Shown one piece after another: positions 33,535 through 39,102 of a stretch of DNA of 64,000 nucleotides; within the stretch, counting starts at the first letter, position 1; each line of letters opens with the position of its first letter. The DNA lies in NCBI GenBank assembly GCA_046261715.1, contig JBHEOF010000001.1, forward strand, positions 29,690 to 93,689, in the 5' to 3' direction. Below the pieces are notes generated by a model, which was not told the origin of the DNA, made no database searches, and was given only the letters and a program-made list of their open reading frames with translations. Made by a program: the position numbers and the translations under genes. The DNA comes from Bacteroidales bacterium. Its GTDB lineage: Bacteria > Bacteroidota > Bacteroidia > Bacteroidales > UBA7960.

Positions 33535-34590
33535 TCAGGCACTTATTCTGTTTGCTTTTCTTGATTGGAATAGCTTTTTCAAACTTTTCTTCAACTCTTT
33601 GCGGTCAATATATTTACCAATAAAAACTATTTTGGAATAACGTGATTCATCATCTTCCCAATCAGTACCATCCTCAAAATTATAAGAGCCCTTTACGGCA
33701 TGGAAAACAGAACGTTTACTCTTATCTCTGAAGTTAAGAATTCCTTTTACCCGGTAAAGTGTATTTTGATTGAAATACAAGTAGCTTGACATCCAGATAT
33801 TGAAAAGTTCCTGATCAAAACATTCATCGAAAATAAATCCTTCTGCATGAATATCATGGCGATGATGTATCGTTTCACTTGACAGAGATTTATTTGATAT
33901 GGCAAGTTCATGTATTGAAATACTTATATTGTGAAATGAACGGGTTGTTTTTTCTATATGCGAAGAAGAATAGGCTTTGGTTTGTAGCAAAGGTGTGCCA
34001 TTTGTTTGTGCCCATTTTGTTTCAACTATTTCAGCCATGGGATTGATTTCGCAGATATGCTCTTTCAACTGACTGATGTATGTTCTTTCAACGAGATCAA
34101 TCTTGTTAAGAATAACCAGATCAGACAAGGCAATTTGTTTTCGTGAATCAACTTCGTTGTTTATCGTTTTTTCCAGAGTTGATGCATCTGTAAGACAAAT
34201 AACACTGTTTACCTCAAAGTACTTTTCAATGGTATTATTGGATACAAATAAATCAATAACACTCGTAGGATCAGCGATTCCGGTAGTTTCAACCAGCAAA
34301 TGGTCGATTTCATCCGATTTTTCTATAATGGTTTGAAGAGAATTGAAAAAATCCCTGCTCAACGAACAACAAATACATCCATTGGTAAGCTCATAAACCG
34401 GTGTCTCTTTAACGGATAAAAGTTCACCATCAATACCTAACTCTCCAAATTCATTCTCTATAATTGCAAAACGGGTATCCTGATTTTTACGGATAATGTT
34501 ATTTAGCAATGTGGTTTTTCCTGAGCCAAGAAATCCTGTAATGATAGTAACCGGGATACGTTTTTGTGCTATTTTAAAATTTTCCTGCAT
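33535..34590 (-). CDS. COG0523-family G3E GTPase (CobW/ZigA-like metallochaperone)
   Basis: 351 aa. P-loop GFLGSGKTTLLN, metal-binding CICC motif, LNKIDL and a CobW C-terminal domain. Confidence 0.85.
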   Translation of the reverse strand: MQENFKIAQKRIPVTIITGFLGSGKTTLLNNIIRKNQDTRFAIIENEFGELGIDGELLSVKETPVYELTNGCICCSLSRDFFNSLQTIIEKSDEIDHLLVETTGIADPTSVIDLFVSNNTIEKYFEVNSVICLTDASTLEKTINNEVDSRKQIALSDLVILNKIDLVERTYISQLKEHICEINPMAEIVETKWAQTNGTPLLQTKAYSSSHIEKTTRSFHNISISIHELAISNKSLSSETIHHRHDIHAEGFIFDECFDQELFNIWMSSYLYFNQNTLYRVKGILNFRDKSKRSVFHAVKGSYNFEDGTDWEDDESRYSKIVFIGKYIDRKELKKSLKKLFQSRKANRISA

Positions 34591-34918
34591 TAACCAGTTA
34601 ATAATGTATTATTTATCCGGTTTTGAAAAGCTGTAGTAGCTATTTTGGTTGTTATTGTTAATTCAACGGGTTGTTAACTTCTTTATTGCAAAGCAAATGT
34701 AAAGAATAAACTATGGATTTAAAAACAAACTAACATCTTTTTATACAAATAATTAGATTATTTCAATGAATCAATAATTCTATTAAACATATTTCCCGAA
34801 AATTGTTTACAATAATGTATTTTTTTTTGAAATTCTTTAATTTAATCTCATCAGGTAAGAAACATAATATTCAATTATCTAAAAAAGAGGAACTGATATT
34901 CAAGGTGGGACAAAATGA

Positions 34919-35428
34919 TTATTTCCTGCTACCTTTCATCCATATACCAGGGAATTCAATACAGTCCTTCAATACAAGGAAAAGTGCAATTATATAAAAA
35001 CTCTCAAGGAAAATATGATATAAAAATCTGGCGAATGAAGAAGTATAATAAAAGGTGAGAAGGAGCATAAAAACCATTTGAAAGAAAAGAAATATACCAA
35101 AATTGATCATCGACTGCTTTGCTGCTATTTTTGCTGGCAGCACATAAAATAAGACCGAAAACCAGCTAAAAACAATAATTACAGGAAATAATATCGCTTG
35201 TACCTTTTGCGGATAGAACCCCTTTTTACCATCAATAAGAGTGTGCACCATAAAAACAAGATCACCGGAATCACTTGTTACACCCACATTTGCATCGCCT
35301 CCAAAAACCGCTTTCATCGTATTTAGCAAAAAGGCCAGTATATGGGCATAAAACCTTTCAAAGCCATTAACCCAAATCAGTGTTATCAGCACCGATGCTG
35401 CAATCCATATAATTATTTTTTTAAGCAT
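34919..35428 (-). CDS. polytopic membrane protein coupled to the exosortase-family gene (possible exosortase-system-associated protein)
   Basis: 169 aa from ATG 35428 (MLKKIIIWIAASVLITLIW...). The ORF-track TTG start at 35446 would abut the upstream stop. It has 4-5 hydrophobic helices and no recognisable catalytic motif. Confidence 0.6.
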   Translation of the reverse strand: MLKKIIIWIAASVLITLIWVNGFERFYAHILAFLLNTMKAVFGGDANVGVTSDSGDLVFMVHTLIDGKKGFYPQKVQAILFPVIIVFSWFSVLFYVLPAKIAAKQSMINFGIFLFFQMVFMLLLTFYYTSSFARFLYHIFLESFYIIALFLVLKDCIEFPGIWMKGSRK

Positions 35429-35446
35429 TGGAAATAATAGTAACAA

Positions 35447-36010
35447 TTAGTTGCCTGCAAAAAAGAGAGGTTTATCTGACCTTTTATCGGCCCACAAAAT
35501 GATTATAAATACCAGCAGGGCAAAAAGTATATTCCAGAAATAATCATGAATGTTGTAAAAAACATTTGTGGAATAGTTGCCAATGGCTCCCATAATTAAA
35601 AATCTCATTTTATTGGCAATAAATATAACTCCTGTCATTATTACAAAATTTATTGCTTTATTTTTTATCGACCAGGGCATAAATATCGAAATCATCAGGA
35701 TAAAAATATAGAAATTATATGCAGTACATTCCAGGATCACTTCCATGCCAAACCCGGAAAAATTCAGTGCCGGGAATCCCCCATCAGAAACTGGTAACTG
35801 CAGTAGTTTCCCTGTTGCTATAACTGATTTGTGTGTAAAGTTTACCATAAAATGCCTTATAACATCTTTTATACCCGGTAAATGAACCATAGCCAGTAAA
35901 AGAAACCATCCTGAGAATGAAAACAACAGAGGTTTTATTCTTTTAAGATACTCTCTCCGCAACTTATCTCTTTGTTTTGCCTTTTCCCTGAGTTCTTTAC
36001 TATTTGCCAC
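35447..36010 (-). CDS. exosortase/archaeosortase-family protein (XrtF-like by size and phylum)
   Basis: 187 aa with a GTG start and a basic cytoplasmic N-terminus followed by TM helices. The family triad is present in canonical order: Cys in VILECTAYNF, Asn-x-x-Arg in IANKMRFLIMG, and His in YNIHDYFWN. Confidence 0.7.
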   Translation of the reverse strand: MANSKELREKAKQRDKLRREYLKRIKPLLFSFSGWFLLLAMVHLPGIKDVIRHFMVNFTHKSVIATGKLLQLPVSDGGFPALNFSGFGMEVILECTAYNFYIFILMISIFMPWSIKNKAINFVIMTGVIFIANKMRFLIMGAIGNYSTNVFYNIHDYFWNILFALLVFIIILWADKRSDKPLFFAGN

Positions 36011-36194
36011 AACCGATATTTTTAATTATTTACACGATTTAAAGGTAAAAAGTTATTCACAACAATAAAGCAAAAACCTGCCAAAAGTTAATTGCTTAAA
36101 ATTATATGTTACTTTTGGTTTTTGTCAATAATAATAAATTTACAGATTGTATTTTCCTGTGTTGAAATTATCGTTCAGTATTAATTTCCTGTAA

Positions 36195-37133
36195 ATGAAA
36201 AAGTTTTTTTCCCTGTTATTTATTCTTGGTTTTATTACAGTGTATGCACAGGAGCGCAATGCCGATCCTGCCAAACAATGGGATATTTCAAAAGAAAATG
36301 ATTGTGAAGGGTTTTCATTGAATTTTTTTGATGAGGAACTTGTAACAGCAGACACCCTGATCACAAAAATTTTAGGTGATGATATCCAATCATACAGTAT
36401 ATTGAATTCTCAGGCTGCTACCGGTCAAAATGCATCTGCGGGTATATTTAATGGTGGAAATGCTGCGGGAATTAACCTGGAAAGTGGAATAATACTGAGT
36501 TCCGGATTTATAAAAAACGTAACCGGACCGAATGAATATTCCGGAGTAACAGGAGTATTGAATCTGCCGGGCGATGAAGACATGGAAGCTCTTATACCCG
36601 GCTATGAAACCCTTGACGCAACCATACTTGAGTTTTCATTTATACCGGTTCATGACACACTCTTCATAAGCTTTGTTTTTGGATCTGATGAGTACAATGA
36701 ATGGGTCGGCTCACCTTACAATGATGTATTTGGATTTTTTCTGAATGGTGAAAACATTGCTTTGGTTCCTGAAACAAATGACAGAATATCAGTAAATAGT
36801 ATCAATAATTTCAGTAATAATAATTTTTTTATAAATAATGATGAGCGTCCAGGTCTGTTTTGCAATGAAATGGATGGTTTCACAACTTTACTGACTGCCA
36901 TAGGTATTGTTTCACCCGGTGAATTAAACCACATAAAGCTGGCCATTGCCGATGCCGGCGACAGAAGTTTCGACTCCTGGGTTTTTATCAAAAGTGGCGG
37001 TTTTACCGGCATTGATCCGGGTGATCCTGATGACGACGATCCGGTTCCATTACCCCTGAAAAACTGGCCCATATTTCTTATAATGATAATGATACTGGTT
37101 TTCACCTTCATTAAGATCAGAAGATCTGCATAA
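36195..37133 (+). CDS. secreted choice-of-anchor-L-like protein with a PEP-CTERM-like C-terminal sorting signal
   Basis: 312 aa. Signal peptide MKKFFSLLFILGFITVYAQ. The core reads LEFSFIP..DTLFISFVFGSDEYNEWVGSPYNDVFGFFLNGENIALVP...DG.T..L. The C-terminus is DPGDPDDDDPVPLPLKNW-PIFLIMIMILVFTFI-KIRRSA. Confidence 0.7.
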   Translation: MKKFFSLLFILGFITVYAQERNADPAKQWDISKENDCEGFSLNFFDEELVTADTLITKILGDDIQSYSILNSQAATGQNASAGIFNGGNAAGINLESGIILSSGFIKNVTGPNEYSGVTGVLNLPGDEDMEALIPGYETLDATILEFSFIPVHDTLFISFVFGSDEYNEWVGSPYNDVFGFFLNGENIALVPETNDRISVNSINNFSNNNFFINNDERPGLFCNEMDGFTTLLTAIGIVSPGELNHIKLAIADAGDRSFDSWVFIKSGGFTGIDPGDPDDDDPVPLPLKNWPIFLIMIMILVFTFIKIRRSA

Positions 37134-37362
37134 AGAAATTAACTCAAGCCCCGGACTTCTTTTCTTACCTGTAATACCTGAATACTTTTCAATGGACAAA
37201 GATTTTTATATTACCGGTTTATTCTCTGTCAATGGTATCGTTGTAGCGGGATATTTTCCTGTTATTGATTTTTAAGAATGCTCACAGCCTTAAAGCACAC
37301 TGATTTTCAATTTTTTTTGTAGGTTTGCCATCCTTATAAAACATAACCAATATAAAAAACCT

Positions 37363-39102
37363 ATGAATAAAAAAATTGCTTTAGCCTTACTCAGCATTAC
37401 TCTTTTTGCTTTCCCGGCACTGGCTTGCACCAGCTACCTGGTTACCCCCGGAGCATCAGTAGATGGTTCATCCATGATAAGTTATGCCGCCGATTCACAC
37501 ATCAGGTATGGTGAGTTGTATTTTTTTGAAGGGGGCCCGAAAGCTCCCGGATCACATTTTCAGGTATATTACCGTGGCAGCCACAAACCGCTTGCACGCA
37601 TACCGCTGCCCGATCGCACATACCAGGTGGTGGGCTATATCAACGAAAAGCAGGTAGCCATTGGCGAAACTACTTTCGGGGGTCACAATGAACTGTTCGA
37701 TACTACCGGTGGTGTTGACTATACCGGACTTATGCAACTGGCACTTATGCAGGCGCCCACCGCGCGCGATGCCATCCGGATCATTGGTGAACTTGCCGAT
37801 GAATACGGATATTACAGCATGGGAGAATCTTTTTCCATTGCCGACCCGAATGAGGTCTGGATCATGGAGATCATTGGAAAAGGAACTGATCTGCAATACG
37901 ACCCTGCCAAAGGTGAATACTACAATGCCGAAAAGGGCGCGGTATGGGTAGCTCAAAGAATTCCTGACGGGTATATCTCTGCACACGCCAATCATGCACG
38001 TATTATGACATTCCCGAAAGCTGACGGGGTAGTATCTATCACCAACAAACAATTCGATGAGCTTCATGAGCCTGGTATAAGTGTAATTTATGCACATGAT
38101 GTTATTGATTTTGCCCGTCGTAAAGGATATTTTGATGGTGAAGATGCAAAATTCAGCTTTTCAGATGTGTATGCGCCTATTGATTTTGGGGCAGCCCGAT
38201 TTTGTGAAGCACGCGTATGGAGCATGTTTAATAAAGTGGCCCCCGGCATGGATCAATATATGGACTATGCCATGGGATTTGATCTTAAAAATCGTATGCC
38301 GCTTTACGTTAAGCCCGAGAGAAAGCTTTCTGTGGAAGACCTGATTAATTTCAAACGCGATTATCTGCAGGGAACCGATTTTGATCTTTCCCAGGATATA
38401 GGTGCTGGTCCGTGGGGTAAACCTTACCGGTGGAGACCTTTGACATGGGAAATTGATGGGAAAACCTATTTTCACGAACGCACCACGGCTACCCAGCAAA
38501 CTGCATTTTCGTTCATTACCCAATCACGAAAAGATTATCCGGGGCCTATTGGCGGTATCATTTGGTTTGGTGTTGATGATGCCAATACAAGCGTTTATGT
38601 GCCCATGTATGCCGGAATAAAAAAAGCTCCTGAGAAATACAAAGAAGGTTTTGGAAGTATTATTGAATATGAGGATGATGCCGCTTTCTGGGTATTTAAT
38701 AAGGTAGCTCATCTGGCATATCTCAGATACAGCTTAAAAATCGATGATATTAAAAAGGTTCAGGCAGAACTGGAAAACAGTTTCAGAGAATTTTTACCGG
38801 CCATTGACAGAGAAGCTCTTGAACTGTATGAGAAAGACCCGGAACAGGCAAAAGATTTTCTCACCAGCTTCAGCGTTTCCATGGGTAACTATACTGTTGA
38901 ACGGTGGCAGGAACTTTACAGGTTTTTAATGATTAAATACCTGGATGGAAATATTAAAAAAGAAGAAGATGGTGAATTTCTTACCAACCAGTGGGGGAAA
39001 TACCCTGTTGTTGAACATCCTGAATACCCTGAGTGGTGGTTAAGAACGATTATTGAACTTACAGGAGACAAATATCTTTACATTGAAGAAGAACAAGACT
39101 AA
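37363..39102 (+). CDS. C69-family dipeptidase (secreted)
   Basis: 579 aa. The signal peptide ends ...FPALA, exposing CTSYLV (the N-terminal Cys nucleophile of the Ntn-type C69 family). Also contains the SIADPNEVWIMEI block. Confidence 0.88.
   Translation: MNKKIALALLSITLFAFPALACTSYLVTPGASVDGSSMISYAADSHIRYGELYFFEGGPKAPGSHFQVYYRGSHKPLARIPLPDRTYQVVGYINEKQVAIGETTFGGHNELFDTTGGVDYTGLMQLALMQAPTARDAIRIIGELADEYGYYSMGESFSIADPNEVWIMEIIGKGTDLQYDPAKGEYYNAEKGAVWVAQRIPDGYISAHANHARIMTFPKADGVVSITNKQFDELHEPGISVIYAHDVIDFARRKGYFDGEDAKFSFSDVYAPIDFGAARFCEARVWSMFNKVAPGMDQYMDYAMGFDLKNRMPLYVKPERKLSVEDLINFKRDYLQGTDFDLSQDIGAGPWGKPYRWRPLTWEIDGKTYFHERTTATQQTAFSFITQSRKDYPGPIGGIIWFGVDDANTSVYVPMYAGIKKAPEKYKEGFGSIIEYEDDAAFWVFNKVAHLAYLRYSLKIDDIKKVQAELENSFREFLPAIDREALELYEKDPEQAKDFLTSFSVSMGNYTVERWQELYRFLMIKYLDGNIKKEEDGEFLTNQWGKYPVVEHPEYPEWWLRTIIELTGDKYLYIEEEQD

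Follow-up and report, generated by a model that had tools for sequence, protein, structure and literature searches.

A minimal exosortase, its obligate membrane partner and cargo proteins with a new C-terminal signal: a probable sorting system of uncultured anaerobic Bacteroidales

Exosortases are widespread yet poorly understood; many subclasses with signals of their own exist, and the superfamily members known so far cut the C-terminal helix off their cargo. In the case of the archaeosortase ArtA, helix removal is linked to lipid attachment, one-step transpeptidation being unsettled (10.1101/2023.06.07.544157), and the Cys, Arg and His residues have site-directed support (cited in 10.1101/2023.06.07.544157). 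In Flavobacterium johnsoniae, deletion of either xrtF or the gene for the partner of the XrtF exosortase resulted in much less biofilm, less colonisation of sand and no zorbs (PMC10936215). Here, we analyse an exosortase-family gene, the gene directly downstream of it and a divergently transcribed gene for a secreted protein in a 64,000-nucleotide stretch from a Bacteroidales bacterium (assembly GCA_046261715.1, contig JBHEOF010000001.1, positions 29,690 to 93,689; hereafter the window, to which the coordinates below refer unless a locus is named). We argue that the three genes very likely belong to a three-part sorting system of uncultured anaerobic Bacteroidales, consisting of an exosortase of a new subclass, an obligate partner and cargo with a new tripartite signal. 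No description of this enzyme–partner–tail system was found in the literature searched on XrtF, Bacteroidota exosortases and choice-of-anchor proteins, and release 20 of NCBIfam (June 2026), from which the curated models were taken, holds no model for the enzyme subclass, the partner family or the tail.

The enzyme gene lies on the minus strand at 35447–36010, starts with GTG, ends with TAA at 35447–35449 and encodes 187 amino acids (aa). Its product scores 43.1 bits against the exosortase/archaeosortase signature model TIGR04178, the cutoff of which is 23, and the same model is matched by all 40 relatives scanned; Pfam PF09721 is sub-threshold in the window enzyme (20.9 vs 25.7) and is precomputed on many homologues. 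The predicted catalytic residues are Cys95 in VILECTAYNF (codon 35726–35728), Arg136 in IANKMRFLIMG together with Asn133 (codon of Arg136, 35603–35605) and His155 in YNIHDYFWN (codon 35546–35548), all encoded on the minus strand. A scan of one genome per species of the Genome Taxonomy Database (GTDB) for the enzyme family yielded 74 loci, one per genome, all in Bacteroidales or Bacteroidota metagenome-assembled genomes (MAGs), and 75 enzyme sequences and loci were available in all. Glu94, Cys95, Asn133 and Arg136 are invariant in 75 of 75 relatives, and His155 is kept in 74 of 74, one more sequence being cut by a contig end. Because the signature model is passed, at least 25 homologues are present in the databases and relatives occur in 74 species-representative genomes, the enzyme open reading frame (ORF) is a real gene, and neither it nor the partner ORF is a chance reading frame. 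By all sequence-level criteria the enzyme belongs to the exosortase superfamily and behaves as a member of it. The original prediction, which had placed both ORFs on the minus strand, picked out the three motif strings and assigned the larger product to the exosortase/archaeosortase family, is thus borne out, as is the conservation of Cys, Arg and His in orthologues. The carriers include Lentimicrobiaceae, Draconibacterium and bins from soda lakes, Guaymas and digesters, and the host range of the enzyme pair is anaerobic, mostly uncultured Bacteroidales.

The AlphaFold2 model of the enzyme has a mean confidence (pLDDT) of 86.4. Both termini are predicted to be cytoplasmic, the N-terminus being strongly basic with 11 Lys or Arg among 26 residues, and residues 45–90 appear to form a periplasmic helix and a three-stranded sheet, followed by three further helices. 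By hydropathy and charge (the positive-inside rule), Cys95, Arg136 and His155 would all be located in the periplasmic half of the membrane. Neither the enzyme nor the partner has a match by sequence in the Protein Data Bank (PDB), and in Foldseek comparisons of the two models with solved structures every match had E > 0.2 and a template-modelling (TM) score below 0.3.

The partner gene (34919–35446, minus strand) encodes a membrane protein with four transmembrane segments and a predicted periplasmic three-stranded beta-sheet, and is considered obligate on the grounds of synteny. It may start at the TTG at 35446, immediately after the enzyme stop codon (0 nt; 175 aa), or at the ATG at 35428, 18 nt further on (169 aa), which agrees with the originally predicted spacing of 0–18 nt; the NCBI annotation of the identical protein, ‘MAG: hypothetical protein ABR597_00295 [Bacteroidales bacterium]’, uses the ATG and has 169 aa. 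The partner follows the enzyme directly and on the same strand in 73 of the 73 loci not cut by a contig end, the position being not assessable in two of the 75, so that the synteny by which the pair was to be checked in relatives is complete, and in eleven loci the start and stop of the two genes overlap by 4 nt, as is typical of translational coupling. Neighbourhood clustering identified the enzyme and the partner as the only universally conserved genes of the locus. All 48 database homologues of the partner are annotated as hypothetical and none has a Pfam domain, and 50 members of the family returned no match to the relevant NCBIfam models at E ≤ 10, a level at which remote homology below the HMMER filters may remain; the description of the partner as a protein without recognisable motif therefore stands. 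Its AlphaFold2 model (pLDDT 90.3) has a long helix at the N-terminus, three more helices and a three-stranded sheet, an arrangement which, when charges are considered, is most consistent with a four-pass topology with both termini inside and a small periplasmic sheet. That the partner might be a paralogue of the enzyme that has degenerated was also considered, and is rejected on profile comparison (hhalign probability 0.6%).

On the other side of the enzyme, the plus strand carries at 36195–37133 a gene for a 312-aa secreted choice-of-anchor L protein (NF038133, 222.7 bits), divergent from the enzyme gene and preceded in its product by an N-terminal signal peptide (MKKFFSLLFILGFITVYA, followed by Q). 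The original prediction recognised the pair and passed over this protein, together with the sorting signal at its end. The signal is a C-terminal tail, PVPLPLKNWP-IFLIMIMILVFTFI-KIRRSA (residues 283–312; 37041–37130, plus strand), matched by a hidden Markov model (HMM) of such tails with 43.5 bits and E = 2.7e-12; the match ends 1 residue short of the C-terminus, the protein end reading ...DDDDPVPLPLKNWP-IFLIMIMILVFTFI-KIRRSA. According to the tail HMM this is the sole tail-bearing ORF in the 64-kb window, and the nearest relatives (loci L001–L003, L006, L008, L010, L011 and L020) have orthologues of the protein that are likewise placed and divergent. From its sequence and position, the neighbouring choice-of-anchor L protein is a probable substrate of the enzyme. 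In L011, the enzyme of which is 79% identical, the choice-of-anchor L orthologue is split into two ORFs (L011:3782–4171 and L011:4217–4816, both minus strand) by a frameshift, as a pseudogene, or by an assembly error, and the tail is still found on the second fragment.

The tail is by no means confined to this protein family. An iterative search with the choice-of-anchor L protein in the 74 related loci drew in unrelated neighbours through the C-terminal tail alone, and a consensus of 111 non-redundant tails on otherwise unrelated secreted proteins consists of a Pro-rich linker, the motif [VIL]-P-[LVI]-S-N-W-A-[ILV], about 14 hydrophobic residues and a basic cluster, R-[FY]-R-[RK]-x-[LI]-(A). 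Across the sets of tails analysed, the motif Pro is present in 100%, the Trp in 90–93% and the Asn in 82–92%; the Pro stands 24–28 residues before the C-terminus, and the tail ends 0–7 residues from it in every case. A signal-peptide-like N-terminus was recognised by a simple heuristic in 80 of 87 tail proteins. The passengers fall into 27 unrelated clusters, with 5498 of 5778 pairs (95%) having only the tail in common, and at least seven copies of the tail are encoded on a single 279-kb contig, four of them in tandem genes in L121 and three in L119. Choice-of-anchor L, J or R domains, which by curated definition are associated with alternative anchors, are present in 22 of 101 passengers, and the remaining modules, DUF11, Ig-like, LRR, fn3, GEVED, cleaved-adhesin and subtilase, are typical of surface proteins; one choice-of-anchor L homologue (L057:1742–2575) has no tail. 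When the tail is held against Haft's eight criteria for a sorting signal (10.1101/2023.06.07.544157), seven describe it fully and the eighth, the existence of homologues with another signal or none, is partly supported, because of the choice-of-anchor L, J and R passengers and the one tail-less homologue. Tandem arrays of three or four tail-bearing paralogues were observed at L121:6241–11618, L119:6758–10084 and L095:7034–12530 (all plus strand), and those of L121 and L095 directly adjoin the enzyme–partner pair.

No curated sorting-domain model, be it PEP-CTERM, IPTL-CTERM, Loki-CTERM, LPXTG or the type IX secretion system (T9SS), was reached by any of 8 tails or 101 full-length cargo proteins. 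The best sub-threshold scores of tails, 15.3 vs 19.9 for Loki-CTERM, 14.6 vs 15.9 for the LPXTG anchor and 13 vs 20.5 for IPTL-CTERM, are noise from the helix and the basic cluster. Likewise, for the T9SS, by which Bacteroidota proteins usually reach the surface, there is no C-terminal domain model among the NCBIfam families matched by the 101 tail proteins, nor among the 25 Pfam families listed out of 29 matched. The tail is best read as a new, previously uncatalogued sorting signal, for which we propose the name VPxSNWA-CTERM.

The connection between the tail and the enzyme can be followed from either end. Starting from the enzyme, for which neighbourhoods of up to 20 kb were examined, the tail HMM detected 41 tail-bearing ORFs within 5 kb in 34 of the 75 loci, at a median distance of 381 nt from the enzyme, 23 of them upstream on the same strand and 11 divergent. 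Starting from the tail, a metagenome scan with a tightened alignment, the earlier one being too variable, gave 80 loci (572 kb) chosen by the tail pattern alone, and six of these carry the enzyme family, with the partner in view in five; the chance expectation for 572 kb, assuming an enzyme gene every ~4 Mb, is about 0.14 (Poisson P ~ 1e-8). The association is thus two-way and local, within neighbourhoods, and the enrichment is strong. Furthermore, the enzyme pair that diverges most (L074, 28% identity; RefSeq Draconibacterium MAG) lies between two proteins (L074:3884–4702 and L074:6392–6967, both plus strand) with a tail that is divergent in turn, EPVP[FV]SI[YF]S...FKLRKRIFNI. This tail looks like a sister signal class that co-varies with its enzyme, which suggests that enzyme and signal co-evolve.

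Given that the layout of the locus, in which the gene for a small polytopic membrane protein comes after that for a ~180-aa Bacteroidota exosortase, is that of the XrtF system, it had been taken for an XrtF-like pair, and the common biofilm phenotype of both XrtF genes in F. johnsoniae is consistent with a two-protein unit of the same kind (PMC10936215). That the window encodes exosortase F and an exosortase F system-associated protein is, however, highly improbable: for the window enzyme, TIGR04128, the model of XrtF, gives no match at E ≤ 1, none of the 50 partner proteins matches the ‘exosortase F system-associated protein’ model, and XrtF has no known sorting signal, whereas the enzyme family described here has a clear one. 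These model results refute membership in the XrtF family, and since just two of 40 relatives touch TIGR04128, at E ~ 0.005 and against a cutoff of 90 bits, XrtF is among the most distant classes. Of the original statement that neither the substrates nor the function of XrtF had been defined, the former part holds, whereas the biofilm phenotype speaks to function (PMC10936215). A closer resemblance is to XrtH (TIGR04177), the best-scoring named subclass with 34.6 bits for the window enzyme and matches in all 40 relatives (best E 5.5e-13), so that the system might be seen as a far branch of XrtH/IPTL-CTERM, with [VI]P-LSNW-A a version of IPTLxxWG one residue shorter. The tail motif does resemble IPTLxxWG, which, going by the family name, we take to be the motif of the XrtH system, and one tail weakly matches IPTL-CTERM at 13 bits. 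We nevertheless consider such a derivation unlikely. The XrtH score is far below its cutoff of 86 and similar to those for ArtB (24.2 vs 150), pacearchaeosortase (22.9 vs 80) and XrtX (17.8 vs 170), which indicates no specific affinity; the IPTL-CTERM model (TIGR04174, cutoff 20.5) is reached by none of 8 tails and none of 101 cargo proteins; and, to our knowledge, XrtH has no obligate partner gene. Neither the enzyme nor any of its 40 relatives reaches the cutoff of a named Xrt or Art subclass (best subclass E ~ 1e-13), and the family is neither XrtF nor XrtH, in line with the fallback of the original prediction, a related and undescribed minimal sortase system, which is the reading that the evidence supports.

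A different objection concerns the tail itself, which could be nothing more than a permanent, uncleaved anchor of the C-terminus in the membrane, the enzyme pair acting on something else or in another role and the adjacency reflecting shared regulation of envelope genes. A tail gene within 5 kb is absent from 41 of the 75 enzyme loci, as would be compatible with a plain anchor; such an anchor, however, needs no near-invariant P-x-S-N-W-A at a fixed 24–28 residues from the C-terminus in 27 unrelated families, and the tail opens with [VI]P as known exosortase signals do. The strong enrichment in both directions, the co-variation of tail and enzyme in L074 and the choice-of-anchor domains, which are defined by carrying processed sorting signals, also argue against a permanent anchor, and we regard it as improbable. 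Several points nonetheless weigh against a three-part sorting system. A tail gene lies within 5 kb in only 34 of the 75 enzyme loci, and the enzyme is close by in only 6 of the 80 tail loci. The window tail is itself an off-consensus clade variant, LPLKNWP, common to the closest relatives. The tail-seeded set was picked by the consensus pattern, which biases its logo towards that consensus; the enzyme-seeded set is unbiased and has the same motif at somewhat lower frequencies (Trp 90%, Asn 82%). Cleavage, the cleavage site, the transfer chemistry, a physical enzyme–partner complex and the final location of the cargo are all matters that we infer, the gene fusion discussed below is read from profile matches of moderate probability between membrane proteins, and the proposal has no explanation for the passage of a protein cut at the inner membrane to the surface of a diderm cell.

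With these points in mind, the sorting system can be envisaged as follows. The enzyme would be a minimal inner-membrane cysteine endopeptidase or transpeptidase with Cys95, Arg136 and His155 at its periplasmic face, and the partner, expressed from the same operon, would most likely be in complex with it. The cargo would be Sec-exported, adhesin-like surface proteins, represented in the window by the choice-of-anchor L protein, which pass through the inner membrane by Sec and become tethered by the C-terminal helix, with the basic cluster on the cytoplasmic side. The VPxSNW motif would thereby come to lie at the outer (periplasmic) leaflet beside the three catalytic residues, where the enzyme may cut at or near the motif and remove the helix. 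The new C-terminus could then be joined to a lipid or glycan anchor, by analogy with ArtA and rhombosortase, or the protein could be released for surface display, and the partner might either dock the substrate helix or present the acceptor.

A possible clue to the role of the partner comes from outside the family. A profile search of 1.84 billion representative sequences returned 556 relatives, the family proper accounting for ~23 clusters, and lengths of 300–420 aa are seen in 58 of the 150 best-ranking representatives of the nearest outgroup. In 34 of these 58, at least 120 aa of polytopic sequence extend beyond an N-terminal exosortase domain towards the C-terminus, and the extensions align collinearly with the partner profile over 118–125 columns (hhalign probability 65–81%, E 1e-5 to 6e-5), compared with at most 1.3% in controls with the reversed profile and the enzyme profile. 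The fused proteins reach no subclass cutoff and, by cluster look-up, come from metagenomic sources only, with generic names or none. The profile matches provide moderate support for an exosortase–partner gene fusion in the outgroup; fusion is expected when two proteins work as one unit, which hints that the partner acts with the enzyme. Going further, one could picture the partner as a second subunit that all minimal exosortases need: short exosortases would work only as heterodimers with a beta-sheet protein of four transmembrane segments, which docks the cargo helix or supplies the acceptor and would be split off here, fused in the sister clade and possibly diverged as the XrtF-associated protein; we put this forward as a doubtful generalisation. 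If it were true, the system would provide the first defined cargo of a Bacteroidota exosortase, along with a T9SS-independent way of anchoring surface proteins in the phylum. In one high-GC metagenomic contig, the gene for a 405-aa fused exosortase and partner-like protein (L155:3457–4674, plus strand) has directly 3′ of it a gene (L155:4649–4873, plus strand) for a mini-protein of 74 aa, made up of a signal peptide, eight consecutive Pro, a helix and a KAKRASK tail, which may be a dedicated one-to-one substrate of the fused protein.

The enzyme and substrate genes of the window share a divergent intergenic region of 184 bp (36011–36194) with promoter-like sequences on both strands, all of them consensus matches only. 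A sigma-70-type TTGACA-16-TATAAT (12/12) runs from 36128 to 36101 on the minus strand, ~90 nt 5′ of the enzyme start, and a Bacteroidota −7-like element, TACTTTTG, is located at 36110–36117 on the plus strand, 78 nt 5′ of the substrate ATG; occurrences of the TANNTTTG motif in the window (80 vs 76.6 expected) show no enrichment. A terminator-like hairpin with a T-run at 37243–37265 (plus strand), ~110 nt past the stop of the choice-of-anchor L gene, is the sole such site in 34500–37400.

Further conserved neighbours, such as an exopolysaccharide (EPS) locus, a transporter or a lipid enzyme, were sought across the 75 loci and none was found. The commonest neighbour after the pair, absent from the window, is a ~404-aa protein with a C-terminal AraC-type helix–turn–helix (HTH) domain (PF12833), which adjoins the pair, on one strand or the other, in 20 of 75 loci (for instance, L071:5643–6857, minus strand) and may be a regulator of the sorting system. 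The remaining neighbours, pyrBI, a CobW GTPase and a C69 dipeptidase, are lineage-specific housekeeping genes. In the window, a CobW/ZigA-like metallochaperone GTPase (33535–34590, minus strand) and a C69-family dipeptidase with a signal peptide (37363–39102, plus strand) flank the locus; neither keeps its position beyond the closest relatives, and nothing was seen to connect them with the sorting system.

The system appears to offer a Bacteroidota exosortase with cargo readable from sequence and, in a phylum where exosortase cargo was missing, a new and well-defined C-terminal tag on dozens of adhesin-like proteins, which suggests a surface route in Bacteroidota that does without the type IX secretion tag. 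One enzyme, one partner and one adjacent tagged substrate also constitute concrete reagents for asking why minimal exosortases need a partner. Without curated models, the parts are now annotated as generic exosortase, as hypothetical protein or not at all.

Among described systems, XrtA/PEP-CTERM and ArtA/PGF-CTERM share with the present one the signature HMM, the Cys/Arg/His set and a polytopic membrane enzyme, as well as cargo with a signal peptide, a motif that opens with [VI]P and abuts a helix, and an Arg cluster; one enzyme serves many cargo proteins, the genes of which often adjoin that of the enzyme. By contrast, the system described here fails all subclass models and has a new P-x-S-N-W-A motif, and its enzyme is minimal (187 aa) and always accompanied by a four-pass partner of an uncharacterised family. 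XrtH is likewise a short exosortase (~160–190 aa) and bears the best, albeit sub-threshold, HMM resemblance, its motif also placing an aliphatic residue, Pro and then Trp just ahead of the helix; it differs in that the enzyme and signal scores are well under the cutoffs, in its lineage and in the obligate partner found here. The XrtF pair of F. johnsoniae (Fjoh_1448/1449) comes from the same phylum and has the same two-gene layout, but neither protein of the present pair can be assigned to it by sequence, and XrtF has no recognised cargo signal. As judged from sequence comparison, the XrtF pair is an architectural analogue without detectable sequence relationship. Finally, the fused proteins are the nearest outgroup by profile search and have a C-terminal half collinear with the partner family, but they are single polypeptides on high-GC, non-Bacteroidota-like contigs, with a different apparent cargo in the one locus examined.

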